Source: Pseudomonadota bacterium (GTDB lineage Bacteria > Bdellovibrionota > FAC87 > UBA2466). From it: a DNA stretch of 58,668 nucleotides. Numbering within the stretch: the stretch's first letter is position 1; each line of letters opens with the position of its first letter. The position numbers and the translations under genes were made by a program. Under the pieces are notes generated by a model. That model was not told the DNA's origin, searched no databases, and worked only from the letters and a program-made list of their open reading frames with translations. Positions 3-54,198 of this stretch are shown here, piece after piece. The DNA lies in NCBI GenBank assembly GCA_043767805.1, contig JAYUGC010000122.1, positions 1 to 58,668 on the forward strand. Reading direction: 5' to 3'.

Positions 3-506
3 AAGACCACGGCGAGCAGTGCCGAGATGATGGCTTGGTTTGGCGTGCTCTGTGAGAAGTATCCCATCTTGAGCATCGAAGACGGTCTCGACGAGAACGA
101 CTGGGACGGCTGGCGGGATTTGACCGCGAAGTACGGGAAGAAATTGCAACTGGTCGGAGACGATCTCTTTTGCACGCAGACCCAGTTCGTAAAGCGTGGC
201 ATCGAAGAGAAAGCCGCCAACAGCGTTCTCGTTAAGGTGAATCAAGTGGGCTCGCTGACCGAGACCTTTGAGACCATGGCGCTCTGCCGGAAGAACGGCT
301 ACTCGGCCGTCGTCTCGCATCGTTCGGGTGAGACGGAAGACACGACGATTGCGCATCTCGCGGTGGCGAGTGGTTGCGGCCAGATTAAGACCGGATCCGC
401 ATCGCGTTCCGAGCGCACGGCGAAATACAACGAGCTTATGCGCATTTCCGACAATGCGGCCCGGGCGGGTAAGCCCATCGCATTCGCGAAATGGGCGCGC
501 AAGTAG
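3..506 (+). CDS. eno: Enolase, C-terminal part (5' end outside window)
   Basis: [48 protein letters not shown] and [14 protein letters not shown] motifs; frame open to the window edge. Confidence 0.97.
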
Positions 507-47392: not shown

Positions 47393-47411
47393 GGGTCTGT
47401 AGCTCAGTTGG
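47393..47411 (+). repeat. Exact 19-bp copy of the tRNA-Val 5' end
   Basis: GGGTCTGTAGCTCAGTTGG at 47393 and 47505. Confidence 0.9.
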
Positions 47412-47504: not shown

Positions 47505-47581
47505 GGGTCTGTAGCTCAGTTGGTTAGAGCGCTACGTTGACATCGTAGAGGTCCGCGGTTCGACCCCGCGCAGACCCACCA
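47505..47581 (+). tRNA. tRNA-Val (GAC)
   Basis: GGGTCTG/CAGACCC acceptor stem, D-arm, CTACG-TTGACAT-CGTAG anticodon arm, GGTTCGA T-loop and encoded CCA. Confidence 0.97.
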
Positions 47582-49079
47582 CTTTTAGGCACTCACAACT
47601 CGCGTCCTCCGCCCTGTAGCCGGTCAGGCTCAAAGGGTCTCTCAAAACAAAATCAATTTTTCGGTACCCGGCTCCATCGGTGTCGCCGACCACGATTGAA
47701 TCGAAAAGTCTCGAATAAAGCCCCCTCAGCGCGATGGGGTCCATTTCTTTAGCCTTTCTCTGGGCTTGCGAAGCTAACTCCACGTGGGTTGCCTGTTCCC
47801 TAGATGATTCATGGATTTTCGCGATCCGTTCGTCGAAGTACTCTAGTTTGAGTTTAAGTCCTGCAATTTCAGAATTAATGGAAGAGGTTCTTGACCGATA
47901 CTCACCTCGAAACTGTCTTGCCGCCTCTGCATCCGCACCATCCAAAAGAAAATCAAGCCGTCTATTCAATTTTTCCCGTTCCTTTTCAAGCTCTGCGACA
48001 CAACTTTCGACCTGTTCACGCTGGCTCTTATGGGTCGCCAAAGCCTCATTGTTCGCATCGATTCTTCGTGCCAACGCTTCTTGCACGGGTCCGGAGGTTT
48101 CGACGATGGAGTCAACGATAGCTCTTGCTTGATCCTCAAGACTTTCCGCCCCCAAGCGGATGCGCTTTTCTTTGTTCCAGTAGTAAAGATGCTTCTGGCC
48201 AGTAATACTTGACCAAGCTCCCGAACCCCAGAAAGTTGACTCGTCCTCGGTGCGTAGAAGGGAAGACAGCGGGTAGATTCGACGGGCAGCCTTATCTACC
48301 GTTTTATTTCCCGCGACCTCAATTACCGCCTGCTGCACTTTATTCCATAGATCGAGGTCGACCGCCTGCCCGTGGGGGAGCGCTATCTCCATGTAGCGGC
48401 CATAGGGCATAAGTTTATCTTGGTTCTTGTCCTTATTTTCCCGGTTTAAAACCCACTTCCCCATGTATCTTGCATTGGTCAGAAGATTTTTCACGGTCGC
48501 GGTGGTAAAGGGTTCGCCGTGCTTATTGCGTACCCCCCTCTTCTCGCAGCGTTCAAGAAGCCGTTCGTAGGACCGGCAGAGAAGAAATTCATTCATTATC
48601 CAAACGACCTGCTCTATTTCCGCTTCATTTATGGTGTAGAGCCCCACCTTCGGATCACCTTTCACCGTTAGCGGGTCGAGCCCTAAGAATTGCTGCGTTG
48701 TATTAAACTTCCCTGAATGGACCATTGCAGAGAAAATATTCTCTTTGAGCCGCTTCGACGTTTGATTCGACTCATATTCGGCGAAGGCCGCCATGATATC
48801 GAGCTGGAAGATCTGGCTCGGGTCATTGGGGTTGAAGGGAAAGCCCCGGATAAAAAGCTCACATTCCTTGTCGATGCAAAGCTTGAAAAATCGCTTCCAA
48901 ATGTCTGTCTCCCGGGCAATTCGGGCGAGCTCCTTAAAGATGATAAATCGATATTTTCCTTCCTGAATACCGTTTTGAAGTCTGATGAATTCGGGGCGCC
49001 TATCATGTTTCCCGGTGATTCCGGGCTCGATGTAGAATCTGACGATGCGGAAGTTGACCTTTTCGGTTTTTGACCGGAC
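47532..49079 (-). pseudogene. Large serine recombinase, 5'-truncated (catalytic N-terminus lost)
   Basis: Frame open upstream of the annotated ATG: FYIEPGITGKHDRRPEF, KELARIAR, AAFAEYES..TSKR, TVKNLLTNARYMG and a coiled coil; no start codon or YxRxS before the stop at 49113-49115. Confidence 0.85.
47575..47598 (+). repeat. att direct repeat, copy 1
   Basis: CCCACCACTTTTAGGCACTCACAA, identical to 53825-53848. Confidence 0.92.
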
Positions 49080-49222
49080 AGGACACTGACTGGGTTCTAA
49101 TTTTTTGATACTTCATTTTTAATTCCTCTTCTCCTTTCAAGGAGATATGGATTTTTGGTTCGACTGAAATCGACCACCCGGTGGTCGCTGGATGGTCGAT
49201 TTCATTCCTGCCGCTTTTGGAC

Positions 49223-49972
49223 CTAATCAAGTTGAAAAAGGTTTCCTGTGTTGTTTAAAAAGTGAAGTTGCTTGTCAGGGTTGAGGACCTCGGCGAGATA
49301 TCCAAAGAAGACTTTTGAACTCTGCTCTTGGCAAAAGTCCTTATCCACTTTGGCCAGAAGGTTCTTTAGTGCGGTCTCTTTGACGATGTACAAAACGCCA
49401 TGAATCTCTTTTTTTAGGTAGTAGGAATTAAGATGGGACGTATAGCGTTCCCTACTCTTTTGCACATCTTCGTACTCGACCGCGATATACCACGCCTTGC
49501 CATCGGTCTTGAAGATTATCGCGGCGTCCGAATGCATTTCTAAGAATGGGTCAGCGGGGAAGAACTTCGAGTCCAGGAGTCCGGCCTCGATTGCATTTTC
49601 AGTGTAGTACCGGACCACTTTTGGGCTTTTTGAGAGCCTATTGCGGATATCAACCAGGACCACATCATGGTCTGGCGAGTCACTTTTGAGCTGAGCCCAT
49701 TGCCTCTCAGTGCGCTGGCGGACGTAAGTTTCAAACGTTTTATCGGTCAGGGAGTAAGCAAACCTGGTCCGGTCCTCCCCCGTAGATTTCCTCCGAATAT
49801 AGTCGTGGCGGATCAAGGTGCGGAGCCGTCTAAGTACATCCTTAAGATCCGCAATACCAAAAATGTCCCGCTTGATTTGAGGGGCGGTCGCGAGTTTGTT
49901 CAAAAATAGATATTCGAAGAGTCTTTTATCTCGGGGAGTGAGGTACATGCCGGGGCGAACCAACTTACCCAT
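49223..49972 (-). CDS. Replication-relaxation (Replic_Relax-like) protein
   Basis: LTPRD..L wHTH start, RRL..L, YSLT, HD, DA and AVEYE...KS..RY; next to FtsK. Confidence 0.75.
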   Translation of the reverse strand: MGKLVRPGMYLTPRDKRLFEYLFLNKLATAPQIKRDIFGIADLKDVLRRLRTLIRHDYIRRKSTGEDRTRFAYSLTDKTFETYVRQRTERQWAQLKSDSPDHDVVLVDIRNRLSKSPKVVRYYTENAIEAGLLDSKFFPADPFLEMHSDAAIIFKTDGKAWYIAVEYEDVQKSRERYTSHLNSYYLKKEIHGVLYIVKETALKNLLAKVDKDFCQEQSSKVFFGYLAEVLNPDKQLHFLNNTGNLFQLD

Positions 49973-50702
49973 TGCTGGGCTCTCCCGGTCTCGGCGCAAA
50001 TTCGTCTACGGCTTTGCCCGTGTTCAGTACTACCTTCTTCGCAGATAGCATTGGCTGATATAGGGCGCGCTTTCCGCCCTTAAACTCTTCGGCTATGGCC
50101 TCACAGCGACTTTTCAATTCCTTTTCATCGAGGAAAGGGGTCTTCACTTCGACCATTCGTGAACCGACCTTCCAGATTCCCCGGCCCGGAATGTGGGGCA
50201 AATCTTTCGCGGAGGCGTTCCCAAGGAGCACGTTCGAACCCTGGACCGAGTTCACTTCAAAGCACATCCGGCCCTCAAGGTTTTCCTGGATGTGAGTATT
50301 GATCGTTTCCTTTGTAACTTTTTGAGTTGCCAAAATGAGGTGGATTCCGGCAGCGCGGGACAGCTTGGCGATTTCGTCGGTCACTTCCGCAGCTTTGGCC
50401 GCGTTCTCTTTATCTGTGGGATTGACCCGGCCTGTGCCGTAAAGGATCGATGCTTCATCTACGCAAACGACAATCCGATCGAGTTGGTCACGCTCGGGAT
50501 CGATGCGCTTGTGGCCATTCCGCTCTAAGATGGCGAACCGCCTCTTCATTTCATCGCGTACTTCAGTGAGGAGAAGGAGGCCCTTTCCCACATCTTTAAC
50601 CAGTTCGACATTGGGGCAGACGGCGAAGTCCTTCATTTCAAGCCCGTTCTTGAGATCCAGAATATAGACTTGGAGACGGGGGCTCGATTCCATTAAGCCC
50701 AC
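49965..50702 (-). pseudogene. FtsK/SpoIIIE-type ATPase, 5'-truncated
   Basis: ILDLKNGLEM, EMKRRF, VVCVDEAS and RAAGIHLILATQ present; Walker A absent; IS-like DNA abuts the 5' end. Confidence 0.8.
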
Positions 50703-50704
50703 GG

Positions 50705-51392
50705 AATTGGCCGCAGCTCTCCGCTAATCGTCTGGCAGTTTACGGATTTTCTCGCTCACTACGAGGCGGTATTGTCTCAATTCCTCGCGCCACCGCTCGA
50801 TGTGCGCCTCAATTTCTTCCGGACCCACCGGCCGGCCCTCAACCATAGAAAGAGTTGATTCAAGATAGGCCGCTAGCGCAGCATCGTCCCCGCCTCCGGC
50901 CACGACGGCCTCCTCGGATGTTGCCACGACGGGGCTAGGGTTCCTCTTCGAGTTCAACGCCTGCTTCTTACGTCGCCCCTCGGGGGTGCGGTAGTATCCC
51001 GTACTCAATCGGCTTCGCCCCTGTCGCGCATGCTACCCTCGGCATCCCATCGGGCAGCGAAGATCACTCCGCCCTCGGTTGCGCGGGCTCGTCAGCCAAA
51101 AGATACCGCATTCCCGGCATCGGCTTAGGCAAGATCGCACCTCTGGCCGCTCCCGCAGCGTACCCCTGAGGGCCAGGTAGTATCCAACCGCCCAGCCACG
51201 CACCTCCGAACGGCGATACCACTGCCGATCGCCGGGTCGAAAAGCCTGCTGCAACGCGACTACGGAAAACCCAGCCGGTCACCCACCTGCGAGAGACTTT
51301 CCTGATTCATAAAGTCCATTGTGACACGGGCGTGCGCCGGGGGTGGGTCAGTTTCGGTGAGCAAAAGTGGGTCAATTCTGGTGAGCGCTGTC
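50705..51392 (-). mobile_element. IS21-family remnant (one end plus a decayed Cys-rich passenger ORF, no istA/istB)
   Basis: Tandem GTGGGTCA.TT..GGTGAGC repeats at 51343-51362 and 51367-51386; CRECG...CPMGC ORF broken by TAG at 51033-51035 and by frameshifts. Confidence 0.6.
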
Positions 51393-51817
51393 GGAGGGAA
51401 GGGTTACCTTCGGCTAAACGAACGCCTTTCCCAAAAGAAAAGGGGGAGGAAGGAGCCTTACGGCCCCTTCTCGCCAATTTTTTTCCAGTCCGTTACTGAA
51501 TCGTCAAAGTGCCGGGATTCATCCAGCATAGGATCGCGCAGTCTTGACCCCGGTCTTCATAACAAATGTGAGGGTCGTAGTACCGCAGCCAAATAAAGCG
51601 GCCCCACAGATCAAGCCGAAGCCAAAACGAAGAAATGAGCGCTGACTCGCCGCGCATCTCCTGTTGAGAGCTAAATAGAAAAACGTCCCTATTACCTAAG
51701 AACCTCAAGCCTCATCTCGGCCCACGTCGAGCGTTTCCAATGATCCACAATCAATGCGTTTCTGTATAGTTCCGGCTACTCTTCCTCTCGACTGGTCCCC
51801 CGAGTCTAAGAATCTAT

Positions 51818-52891
51818 ATGAACATGAACGACACGACGCCGTCAGGCCCTTCCTTAATGCGCCTTCCCGGACTTGATGGTCTCAGAGGCGTATCTATTCT
51901 GCTCGTCATGCTACTCCACACGGCCCAGTCACCCTTTTTTCCGGACTGGCTTCTGCTCAAGGCAATCGCCACCCGGGGCGGTTTTGGCGTGGATATTTTC
52001 TTTGTCATTTCAGGCTTTCTTATCACCTCCCTCCTATTGAACGAAGAGAGAAAATTTGAAACCATCGACCTCAAGCGTTTTTATCTGCGCAGGGCATTCC
52101 GGATTTTGCCGCCTGCCTTTGTTTATTTATCCATGGTCCTCGCTTTCGGAATGCTCGGATGGATTTCCATCAATGGAAGAGAGCTCCTCGCGAGTGCTTT
52201 CTTTTTCCGAAATTTCATTTCCGGCGGAACCATCGAGACCGCCCATTTTTGGACTCTCTCCATCGAAGAGCAGTTCTATTTATTTTGGCCCTTCGTGCTT
52301 TTCTTCTTAAAGTCGCCCGATAAGAGGCTTAAGGCGGCTATCGTACTGGTTCTCCTTGCTCCATGCTGGCGTCAAATTAACTACTATTTTTTTTCAGCGG
52401 AGTCAGTGAATCCTTGGAGAACCGATCTTCGCTATGATCCGCTGTTGGTCGGTTGCGTAGTGGCTCTTTTGAGGGAGCGAGTCGGAGCCAGGCGCGTTCT
52501 ACAATCTCGGCCTTTAAACACCGACCTGGCTTTTTCAGTTTGCGTCCTTTTAGTCATCGGTTCATTGACCGATTTTAGCTTTTCCCTGCCGGGAGAAGTT
52601 AGATTCGCCTTCGGTATTCTCCGAATCCTTCTCGTGGCGCTCATCCTGAACTATCTCGTAAACGCTCACGGTCGATTTTTTGATCGATTTTTTAGAATGG
52701 GGTGGCTCGTATACCTGGGTAAACTTTCCTACAGTTTATATATTTGGGGGCAGCTTTTTTGTTATCATTATGAGCCCGGGGTCGTGAGGAATTTCCCGCA
52801 GAATGTCTTTTTCGCTCTCTTGGCCGCGGCCCTGAGCTACCACGTCGTCGAGCAACCTTTCCTGCGTTGGCGGGAACGCCTCAAGATTTGA
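51818..52891 (+). CDS. Acyltransferase family 3 (OafA-like O-acyltransferase)
   Basis: LDGLRG, GVDIFFVISGFLIT, FYLRRAFRILP, HFWTLSIEEQFY and SYSLY. Confidence 0.93.
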   Translation: MNMNDTTPSGPSLMRLPGLDGLRGVSILLVMLLHTAQSPFFPDWLLLKAIATRGGFGVDIFFVISGFLITSLLLNEERKFETIDLKRFYLRRAFRILPPAFVYLSMVLAFGMLGWISINGRELLASAFFFRNFISGGTIETAHFWTLSIEEQFYLFWPFVLFFLKSPDKRLKAAIVLVLLAPCWRQINYYFFSAESVNPWRTDLRYDPLLVGCVVALLRERVGARRVLQSRPLNTDLAFSVCVLLVIGSLTDFSFSLPGEVRFAFGILRILLVALILNYLVNAHGRFFDRFFRMGWLVYLGKLSYSLYIWGQLFCYHYEPGVVRNFPQNVFFALLAAALSYHVVEQPFLRWRERLKI

Positions 52892-53142
52892 AATGCGTTC
52901 CGTAGTCAATCCTTACTGGCCGGCACGCGCAGGCTTTATCGGAGCGGAAAGTCGACCTCTGCTGGATGCGGCCACCGAAAAGCGCGGACTCGTTGCCATG
53001 GGGAGCAACCAGTATTGGCGATTTTCTCATTCACATCTTGCGCACTTGTCGACAGAGCTGCACGCGCATTGCCCGGCCAAAACGCCGCGATTTTCAATGG
53101 CCAACCTACCCAAAAGTCTTGCATGGGATGAAAAGGGTAGAA

Positions 53143-53322
53143 CTACCTCTCCCAATCGTAGCTCTCTCGGTCTATTGATTTTTGAAAGCGATACGTTGAT
53201 TTAAGCCCTTTGCTTACTCGGATGAGCGCCCCTCTTCTTATGAAATCATAGGCCGCAGCGGCTCCGAACAACGTAACACCAAGAAACGCAAGTGCCATAA
53301 GCGCATCGAATATTTTAGACAT
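53143..53322 (-). CDS. 59-aa membrane protein not in the ORF track
   Basis: GGGAGGT RBS; MSKIFDALMALAFLGVTLFGAAAAYDFIRRGALIRVSKGLKS...WER-TAG. Confidence 0.6.
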   Translation of the reverse strand: MSKIFDALMALAFLGVTLFGAAAAYDFIRRGALIRVSKGLKSTYRFQKSIDRESYDWER

Positions 53323-53373
53323 CTTACCTCCCTACAGACTTTTAATAGCGCCGTTTTTATGCACTATCAGTTC

Positions 53374-53922
53374 TTATTTTTCGCGAATCAAAATCTGTCG
53401 AACCATCTCGGGGTGCCACGCCTTACCCCGCTGTTTGGTTTGGATTTTTATCTCGGTCAACACGCGGGCTATAGCGCAATTTGACATACCCTCCCCATGC
53501 ATCCTGACAATGGACTCAATTGTTCGCCGCTCCCCTTTGTGAGCCTCGACTCTTCCGTTAACGCACTTCTTCCCAAAGGGAAGGTTATGAGTCCGGTGGG
53601 GACTGCTGCCGGCGTCTCGGATCGGGATGCCGAACCTGAGAAGCGCGCTGCGGACTGCGGTTTTGGAGGACGCAAACGCGTCCGCGATTTGCCTCATTGA
53701 GTGCCGTTCCAACACGTATTTTTGATGGAGGACGCGCTTTTCAAAAGTTCGGGGAAGTGCTCTAATGCCTGAATGTATTATCGTTTTCGGTTGGAGGACG
53801 CGAGTTGTGGCTGGGTCTGACGAGCCCACCACTTTTAGGCACTCACAATAGACCTGTAGCCTGCAGCCGAACATTCGATGATTCTTCATTTTTCGCTCAA
53901 TATGGAGGACGACGTTATACAT
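53374..53922 (-). CDS. HTH plus recombinase-like DNA-binding domain ORF that spans the att repeat
   Basis: LHQKY..HSMRQIA...SKTAVRSAL HTH and SNCAIARVL...TKQRGKAWHPEMVRQIL; shares CECLKVVG with the recombinase C-terminus. Confidence 0.7.
   Translation of the reverse strand: MYNVVLHIERKMKNHRMFGCRLQVYCECLKVVGSSDPATTRVLQPKTIIHSGIRALPRTFEKRVLHQKYVLERHSMRQIADAFASSKTAVRSALLRFGIPIRDAGSSPHRTHNLPFGKKCVNGRVEAHKGERRTIESIVRMHGEGMSNCAIARVLTEIKIQTKQRGKAWHPEMVRQILIREK
53825..53848 (+). repeat. att direct repeat, copy 2
   Basis: Identical to 47575-47598. Confidence 0.92.
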
Positions 53923-54198
53923 CTATCGGAACCTCTGCCGAATCGAATGCGCCTTCTATCACGCGACGTTCAGGCAGCGTGCCTGGATGCTGGATGATAT
54001 TCTTTCCCGGGTTAAGTGGAGTTGGCCATCGAAAAGCGCCACCACAGATTTCCAAAAGCGAGCCCCGGTGCAGCGCCACGTAGAAGGCTAGGAGCTCCAC
54101 CTCAGACCAATATCACCCGGTGACCCAGGGTGACATCCTGCACTGGTTCGCGCGGACGGCCACAAGCCCGCGCTTTTCGATGGCCGGCTCCTCGGGCC

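Follow-up and report, generated by a model that had tools for sequence, protein, structure and literature searches.

A serine recombinase family of Bdellovibrionota that probably carries its crossover site inside the recombinase reading frame

We describe a family of large serine recombinases from Bdellovibrionota in which the attP crossover probably lies inside the recombinase reading frame, such that the excised circle would carry a single open reading frame (ORF), integration would detach a helix-turn-helix (HTH) tail from it, and each direction of recombination would have its own isoform. The case from which the analysis started is a decayed integrative island at the 3′ tip of a tRNA-Val gene, at 47575-53848 of contig JAYUGC010000122.1 (assembly GCA_043767805.1), whose whole stretch of 58,668 nt is called the window here. 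The island's own recombinase is defunct, and the evidence for the family comes from the window together with its relatives.

The window holds one tRNA gene, an intact tRNA-Val(GAC) at 47505-47581 on the plus strand (ARAGORN; Rfam RF00005, 69.6 bits). A repeat search of the window returned a 24-nt exact direct repeat, CCCACCACTTTTAGGCACTCACAA, which opens with the final 7 nt of the tRNA gene (CCCACCA, its CCA included) and whose two copies (47575-47598 and 53825-53848) bound an island of 6.25 kb, compared with about 7-45 kb in related pairs. The recombinase frame, on the minus strand, crosses the left core as ...CECLKVVG, continues for the 13 codons LRGVEPRTSTMST and stops at 47532-47534. At the far end, the minus-strand ORF 53374-53922 reads ...CECLKVVG-SSDPATTRV... 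through the right core and remains open for 149 more codons (53823-53377). Both ORFs cross the core in one codon register, and a scripted join of 48794..47575 with 53824..53374 yields a single open frame of 556 amino acids (aa); in the integrated window gene, the 13 tRNA-antisense codons stand in place of the 149. An earlier note on this DNA, made from its letters alone, had described the core inside the recombinase ORF with its 13-aa antisense end and the same core and register at the far end, and had suggested joining the two frames in silico; we could reproduce each of these points.

In the joined site (the in-silico attP), the core is flanked by a 17-nt perfect inverted repeat, 47594-47610 / 53793-53809. 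A gapless dyad scan scored the window attP at 20/32, against a maximum of 18 in 200 shuffles; the sites of G234, G158 and G302 reached 23/32, 21/32 and 20/32 against a shuffled maximum of 18, and the remaining pairs have only the GGAGGAC...GTCCTCC arms. The in-silico attP thus has the short, dyad-symmetric form with a central crossover that is a trait of serine integrases. Because this inverted repeat flanks the core and the same register is kept in relatives, the arrangement in the window is more than chance.

The tail encodes a foldable domain. Its last 48 residues match the first half of the Recombinase domain PF07508 (positions 5-51 of 102, E 1e-5), so that the 'recombinase-type segment' named in the earlier note is a true Pfam match. 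A model of the domain (125 aa, 30-sequence alignment) has a predicted local distance difference test score (pLDDT) of 87.1 and shows two three-helix HTHs with a beta hairpin between them. Foldseek against the PDB returned nothing at E ≤ 0.001 for this model. The best rows, all with weak E values, are recombinase domains of large serine integrases (9y66, 9dxd, 9iu8 and 4kis), aligned over 72-82 columns with a root-mean-square deviation of 2.4-2.8 Å for several, and over its whole length the model resembles, again at weak E, two DNA-binding domains of bipartite build, those of Pax and Tc3 transposase. The tail thus consists of one HTH and, behind it, an incomplete repeat of the recombinase domain that the enzyme already has; judging from the model, it is plausibly a DNA binder. 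Co-folding of recombinase residues 104-509 with the tail domain gave an interaction prediction score from aligned errors (ipSAE) of 0.00 in two runs, made without controls.

The recombinase itself has Pfam matches to Resolvase and Recombinase and none to Phage_integrase, which is not the chemistry of a tyrosine recombinase. In the window, PF07508 is present (E 2.7e-15, residues 58-156 of the 420-aa ORF), and the zinc ribbon PF13408 has no match either in the window ORF or in its 83%-identical homologue P0042. The first start codon of the frame is at 48794 (420 aa), with no ATG, GTG or TTG earlier in the frame; the distal part of the resolvase domain is encoded in frame upstream of it. Compared with 13 aligned full-length homologues, the frame lacks about 75 N-terminal residues, including the conserved 'AYLRLST..QV.VEKGSLEQQ', and a search of the genome with P0042 found a match limited to P0042 residues 76-594. 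The resolvase domain with its serine nucleophile (PF00239) is found in the relatives and not in the window copy, and the genome search found no second copy of the recombinase or the tail in the same genome. Since no start codon precedes 48794 and the catalytic N-terminus is missing, the window recombinase is a truncated pseudogene and this copy of the island a fossil; with the catalytic N-terminus lost, nothing switches in the window any more. The remnant is 84% identical to its relative in G062, at nonsynonymous and synonymous distances (dN/dS) of 0.095/1.85.

We surveyed the family with a profile scan of 401 Bdellovibrionota genomes, with Pseudobdellovibrionaceae and Bdellovibrionales among the taxa. 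The tail was found in 151 genomes and the recombinase (E ≤ 1e-40) in 59, and lone tails persist in some genomes where the recombinase is lost. We then fetched every listed case that has recombinase and tail on one contig in the right order and orientation. In 13 of these 15 loci the recombinase 3′ end is antisense to a tRNA or transfer-messenger RNA (tmRNA) gene (tRNA Asn, Ala, His in four, Asp in three, Pro and Met; tmRNA in two); no tRNA was called at the recombinase 3′ end of G158 and G345. The tail gene lies on the same strand as the recombinase, 5-45 kb away, and the family's targets comprise at least nine kinds of tRNA or tmRNA. In the protein database, the recombinase has 20 non-self homologues, mostly of 555-630 aa, and 10 of the 13 aligned full-length ones end in a G-[LIF]-E-P-type peptide, which we take to be the mark of an antisense T-arm; ARAGORN, run on the DNA, confirmed the overlap of recombinase 3′ ends with tRNA genes. 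For the tail, the database holds 39 non-self homologues with lengths from 100-194 aa; the majority measure 153-164 aa and are 55-69% identical, and their annotated starts ('MVD', 'MD') align with the window's 'VVG'.

If integration splits one gene, then the two halves should keep a common reading frame across the core in every island. This is what we find: the register is kept in all 15 same-contig recombinase/tail pairs at tRNA or tmRNA genes, which represent 14 recombinases (G150a and G150b share one). Eleven pairs were scored by a script on exact words shared between the recombinase 3′ end and the tail 5′ end, giving cores of 9-24 nt in the same phase, and three with cores of 7-8 nt were read by eye from their junctions (G348 TGGCTCAG, G058 AATGGGGT and G158 TGGTGGA). 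The fifteenth was counted after re-pairing: the recombinase of G207:C1 is out of register with its outer tail, a remnant, and that pairing was rejected; a scan of the 48 kb between recombinase and outer tail revealed an inner tail, 7 kb closer, with a 15-nt core, CGTAAGATTTGGTGG, in phase. Two loci could not be judged, G345 and G278, the latter with a tail preceded by a recombinase C-terminal remnant in the same ORF. Four cross-contig pairs are in phase as well: that of G252, with a recombinase split between two contigs, and those of G046, G376 and G211, in which the pairing is unproven; three further cross-contig candidates (G062, G238 and G150:C63) were not evaluable. The nominal chance of this tally is (1/3)^15, a figure that treats kin as independent. 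A better argument is that the core occurs in three codon phases relative to the TGG antisense to CCA, with both halves agreeing each time: xTG-Gxx in Val, Ala, Asn and tmRNA, TGG in His, and xxT-GGx in Asp and tmRNA.

A second expectation is that the joined protein should occur in nature. We found eight natural fused ORFs of 671-793 aa, five in the phylum scan and three among library representatives. Those from the phylum scan (G218:C2, G211:C277, G211:C159, G372:C57 and G279:C46; 738-793 aa) consist of Resolvase, Recombinase and tail, with a zinc ribbon in 3/5 and no tRNA nearby. Four of the five linkers contain tRNA-tip-like words; in the G218 linker ('AAATGG') the TGG precedes the Leu codon by the canonical distance of 103 nt, and in G211:C277 a TGG stands 112 nt before it. 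The other three came from a profile search of 1.84 billion representatives, which returned 25254 matches at E ≤ 1e-3, 4473 at E ≤ 1e-10 and 300 at E ≤ 1e-30; the 4473 include some HTH-repeat proteins that are unrelated. Among the best 150 matches, 68 contain the whole domain in one stretch; 65 of these are proteins of 109-303 aa, and the remaining three are Resolvase-Recombinase proteins of 671, 691 and 737 aa with the tail domain at the C-terminus. The longest of them, P0155, belongs to the recombinase family of the window (34% identity over 559 aa) and shares its peculiar N-terminal extension. It reads ...YSEGMVG-RSRAIAKNLAVLKTTIKS...FLLHQKY, and from MVG onward it is 40% identical over 152 aa to the window's VVG plus tail. 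Judged by its sequence, P0155 is the protein that the earlier note had predicted.

We next consider where translation of a detached tail could begin. The open tail frame begins 1-74 nt before the core, at a stop codon in the flank, and no stop lies between core and domain in any pair. The earlier note had stated that the window has no start between the core and the HTH, and indeed there is no ATG, GTG or TTG between the core and helix 1 of the window's HTH domain; what it had passed over are two in-frame GTG codons (the 'VV' of KVVG) inside the core itself. No Shine-Dalgarno-like sequence is found at the right distance before this core GTG in the window. Among the relatives, 6 of 14 pairs (G207C3, G058, G059, G098, G150a and G150b) have no ATG, GTG or TTG from the core to the conserved 'LHQKY', and in G058 the whole open tail frame lacks a start codon. 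The tails are nevertheless under purifying selection (dN 0.136 and dS 1.00 for G234/G158; dN 0.103 and dS 1.04 for G046/L076), as is a pair that includes a start-less member (G374/G058; dN 0.12, dS saturated). For a domain that is selected and has no start, the simplest explanation is that it is translated within the joined gene.

One alternative is that the tail is an independent small gene, encoding a trans-acting regulator or a directionality factor, which is translated from an ATG, GTG or TTG (NTG) in the core, and that in-frame continuity with the recombinase is a functionless by-product. The cores of several members do offer such codons in frame (GTG GTG in the window, ATG GTG in G234, TTG GTG/GCT in G158, G348 and G302), most of the 39 annotated tail homologues start 'MVD' or 'MD', and tails occur in more genomes than the recombinase, some of them outlasting it. 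On the other side, the start-less tails are under purifying selection, the register holds in all 15 pairs and all three phases, eight natural fusions exist, the window GTG has no Shine-Dalgarno-like sequence before it, and an NTG at this place follows directly from the tRNA sequence. We consider an independent gene unlikely. The absence of starts, whose conservation the earlier note had proposed to check, holds for the six pairs above and does not extend to the window's subfamily, in which an NTG in the core is usual, so that separate translation of the tail is possible there. The simplest competing account, a chance read-through in a decaying pseudogene region that makes the open frame across the right repeat meaningless, would suit the pseudogene status of the window recombinase and a window linker that evolves at dN ~ dS (0.44/0.44) relative to a relative's. 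It is contradicted by the conserved register, the natural fusions and the purifying selection, and we regard it as extremely improbable.

The tail's codons also hold a repeated DNA motif. Counting from the T of the TGG antisense to CCA, GAGGA lies at -28/-29 on the recombinase side, and TCCTC lies at +33..36, +99..101 and +161..163 in most pairs. In the window the repeats read TGGAGGACGC(G/A), at 53792-53802, 53726-53736 and 53664-53674, and the inverted copy occupies 47600-47610. Each of the two outer copies falls on conserved residues, (F/V)-L of 'LHQKY' in one and S-S of 'SSKT' in the other, and across 48 distinct tail genes the codons used at these residues depart from background: Leu is CTC in 37/42 (17% background), the preceding Phe is TTC in 20/22 (34%) or the preceding Val GTC in 18/23 (24%), the first Ser is TCC in 32/36 (12%) and the second Ser is TCC in 28/41. 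The exact pentamer is present at site 2 in 32/48 and at site 3 in 29/48 genes. Synonymous codon choice at the TCCTC sites is thus constrained. As the arm copy and the second copy fall in different reading frames in His-type islands, this is not a protein repeat. The resulting attP has inverted arms 28-33 bp from its centre, and beyond the arm on the tail side two direct repeats follow at steps of about 65 and 62 bp; we know of no described serine integrase site with such a layout of arms plus direct repeats.

From these observations we propose the following cycle. The crossover lies at the antisense of the tRNA CCA end, between the two GAGGA/TCCTC inverted arms. In the excised circle, one ORF would encode the catalytic domain, the recombinase domain, a presumed coiled-coil region, the 34-codon linker and the two-part HTH of about 125 aa (Int-L, about 740 aa). 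Integration would cut this ORF at the core to give Int-S, which would end in 10-45 codons of antisense tRNA or tmRNA, and would strand linker and HTH domain, in most cases with no start codon, at the island's other end. A newly arrived circle would make Int-L only; as the only form that the circle can make, we infer Int-L to be the integrating enzyme. The chromosome would make only Int-S, plus free tail where the core offers an NTG, and hence each direction of recombination would meet a different enzyme. This agrees with the earlier note's proposal that the circular and integrated states encode different isoforms; the conserved register and the natural fusions speak for it in the family, and it no longer applies to the window, where the recombinase is dead.

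What the tail does is more tentative. The tail domain may read the TCCTC repeats in its own codons, on the P′ side of attP, in which case synonymous codon choice would have placed a domain's binding sites within its own coding sequence. Our best guess, a tentative one, is that these repeats let the tail assist in assembling the enzyme on attP and that its loss shifts Int-S from integration towards excision, moving activity from attP x attB towards, or at least permitting, attL x attR. Equally tentative is the further suggestion that gene topology sets directionality, with Int-L integrating by way of the TCCTC repeats and Int-S excising, and no separate directionality factor. The earlier note had likewise suggested that the two isoforms could set directionality, or else autoregulation.

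Integration might instead act as a one-way lock, as in the 'suicidal' integrases of archaeal spindle-shaped virus (SSV) type: the split would disable the enzyme, Int-S would be inactive and the island could not excise itself. Decayed islands, lone tails and tandem remnants are indeed many (the window, L039, L042, L043 and G207:C1), and SSV-family integrases are described as disrupting their own gene on integration (PMC7253208). Int-S, by comparison, keeps every domain of an ordinary large serine recombinase and loses only the extra one; the integrated recombinase genes are intact and constrained (dN/dS ~0.05-0.1), the family has spread to its many kinds of target, and the altered integrase of myxophage Mx8 is reported to stay active with changed specificity (PMC6070905). 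We consider such a lock rather unlikely.

Several points weigh against a recombination-gated gene fusion. The counts overstate the statistics, since kin are not independent. In the window's subfamily the core usually holds an in-frame ATG, GTG or TTG, and gene callers predict stand-alone proteins of 153-164 aa. The fused ORFs could be junctions of tandem islands, or genes with an att site elsewhere: tandem islands exist (G207:C1, G150), so a fused ORF may mark the meeting of two islands and not a circle, and the short fused-ORF contigs G211:C277, G211:C159 and G372:C57 show no terminal overlap. Among 393 candidates, none was a longer protein fused to the window's tail, which is weak evidence. 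On the 3.1-kb metagenome contig L076 (370-2515), recombinase and tail are adjacent and one base out of frame; a TGA stands just before the tail, which could start at a GTG, as an independent gene would. This contig combines a recombinase of another subfamily with a window-type tail, without a GAGGA arm on the recombinase side, and we take it to be a place where unlike islands meet, although a counter-example or a sequencing error is just as possible. Which protein would bind the predicted TCCTC sites is a guess. Finally, excision by canonical large serine integrases depends on a separate directionality factor (PMC5737554). Even with these points, we regard a crossover inside the recombinase frame, with detachment of the tail on integration, as the probable arrangement.

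Table 1. Features of the island and its att sites in the window.
Feature	Position	Strand	Remarks
Tail reading frame: 34-codon linker and ~125-aa two-part HTH domain	53377-53824	-	in frame with the recombinase across the core
Large serine recombinase remnant	47532-49100	-	open frame of 522 codons; PF07508
13 codons and stop (LRGVEPRTSTMST, then stop), integrated-state C-terminus	47532-47573	-	antisense to the tRNA
Left core copy (attL crossover region)	47575-47598	.	exact direct repeat
Right core copy (attR)	53825-53848	.	exact direct repeat; holds in-frame GTG GTG
P arm, left half of the 17-nt inverted repeat	47594-47610		TCCTC 47605-47609 = coding-strand GAGGA, 28 nt before the anti-CCA TGG
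P′ arm, right half of the 17-nt inverted repeat	53793-53809		GAGGA 53794-53798 = coding-strand TCCTC at +33
Second repeat copy, TGGAGGACGCG	53726-53736		TCCTC at +99; codons of the conserved V-L-H in 'VLHQKY'
Third repeat copy, TGGAGGACGCA	53664-53674		TCCTC at +161; codons of the conserved S-S in 'SSKT'
258-aa island ORF, function unassigned	49223-49999	-	no Pfam match; weak phrog_9996 match
FtsK/SpoIIIE-like fragment, 245 aa	49965-50702	-	PF01580 positions 67-140 of 221; phrog_1358, E 1.6e-39
Acyltransferase-3 / O-acetyltransferase gene	51818-52891	+	PF01757, E 8.8e-31; phrog_6705, phrog_3333

The other ORFs of the island are listed in Table 1. The FtsK/SpoIIIE-like fragment covers only the middle of its family profiles, and the acyltransferase gene is taken to be cargo. 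Upstream of the tRNA gene, at 47393-47411, lies a 19-nt exact copy of the tRNA-Val 5′ end (GGGTCTGTAGCTCAGTTGG), 112 nt before the gene, which may be a displaced tRNA fragment from another event. An extra copy of the arm and repeat motif, ATGGAGGACG, is found in the flank at 53902-53911, about 75 nt beyond the right core. We had considered the flank 53849-54198 as the remnant of an older island and dropped this idea, as only a 10-nt motif match and no profile match below E 0.1 was found. The repeat family GGCCA(C/T)CGAAAAGCGC occurs inside the island (52963-52985) and outside it (54017-54039 and 54170-54191, one of these inverted), and could be a repetitive extragenic palindromic (REP)-like or terminator-like element. 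Contigs of four sediment-metagenome runs that contain the stretch, two of them possibly its origin (one study, depth ~5-7), showed no joints, circular junction or empty site. In a search of relatives for an empty attB, the recJ flank was about 66% identical in 9/20, and the five loci returned held no tRNA.

Remnants are common among the relatives as well. Tandem or remnant islands occur in G207:C1 (409258-409809 and 416272-416727), L058 (G150:C66), L042, L039 and L043, in the form of two tails behind one recombinase or of lone tails 1-2 kb from a tRNA, and one 71-aa stump of a recombinase C-terminus adjoins a tRNA-Val. In L037 (G274:C21, 4606-5820), the frame of an ISL3-family transposase continues into the final ~80 residues of a tail domain, for a total of 405 aa; here an insertion sequence sits in a tail gene. 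Five related islands (L044 10166-10762; L047 6220-6837; L049, L050 and L053) encode a second, resolvase-type serine recombinase of 198-209 aa a few kb from the large one, which recalls the DsiA/CcrA partners described in the Dehalococcoides study (PMC3146451). The fused-ORF contig L066 (G372:C57, 181-3340) also has an AcrB-type efflux operon and conjugation genes, for a TraC/TraG-like ATPase and a TrbC pilin, which shows that conjugative elements are among the carriers. A tblastn search of the tail against plasmid and phage collections gave no match. The strongest library matches to the tail profile (P0062-P0068 and similar proteins) are 500-1150 aa long and contain 8-15 tandem HTH units resembling the tail's first HTH; their Pfam matches span dozens of HTH families and include no recombinase domain.

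Large serine integrases owe their value as tools to being simple and one-directional, and their reversal normally needs a separate factor. If the proposal is true, this family would offer a natural, self-contained coupling of enzyme form to recombination state, in which the gene in the chromosome and the gene on the circle specify two different enzymes. Many serine integrases that target tRNA and tmRNA genes are added as well, and the finding matters for annotation: pipelines call these enzymes with junk C-termini and the detached domain as a hypothetical protein.

In domain composition (Resolvase, Recombinase and, in some, a zinc ribbon) and in their dyad-symmetric att sites, these enzymes are like the canonical large serine integrases of phiC31, Bxb1, SPbeta and LI/A118; they differ in having the att site inside the ORF, a tRNA-tip target and a longer attP. 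Among split or altered phage genes, that of mycobacteriophage BPs encodes the repressor; the integrases of both BPs and Mx8 are tyrosine recombinases. In Mx8, int contains attP and receives a new 3′ end on integration (IntP/IntX; PMC6070905). Integrases of the SSV family have their recombination site within the ORF and are split by integration (PMC7253208), and in BPs attP lies inside a gene and the integration state alters the C-terminus of a phage protein (PMC4557955). The window is like Mx8 and SSV in that a crossover core, here coding for CECLKVVG, lies inside the integrase frame and integration yields a different C-terminus. Unlike in Mx8, the enzyme is a serine recombinase and a whole extra domain is exchanged; unlike the tyrosine recombinases of SSV, which are left as two pseudogenes after the split, the catalytic and core DNA-binding parts here stay in one ORF.

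A related layout is found in Dehalococcoides, whose serine recombinase gene dsiB always overlaps attL; the authors suggested that it is perhaps fully functional only on the circle or beside an adjacent island (McMurdie et al. 2011, PMC3146451). The earlier note's statement that such an arrangement is not known for serine integrases was therefore too strong. Both systems share a tmRNA 3′ target, tandem islands and a second, small serine recombinase, DsiB being CcrB-like and its islands ssrA-specific. They differ in that the report on DsiB leaves the overlap unresolved, describes no swapped domain and places the inferred crossover in the T-loop (PMC3146451), whereas here, with DsiB compared by its description, the crossover is at the CCA tip, the targets are mostly tRNA genes, a folded domain of about 125 aa under selection is removed, natural fusions are found and DNA repeats lie in the tail's codons. 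An att site inside an integrase ORF is thus not unprecedented, given DsiB in 2011 and IntP/IntX of Mx8; the TCCTC repeats in tail codons are new here. Our literature search returned no case in which a serine integrase acquires or sheds a folded DNA-binding domain on integration, nor any mention of such embedded repeats. In engineered integrases, fusion to a directionality factor changes the direction of recombination (PMC5737554). There, an attached module reprograms direction; here, recombination itself would attach or detach the module.

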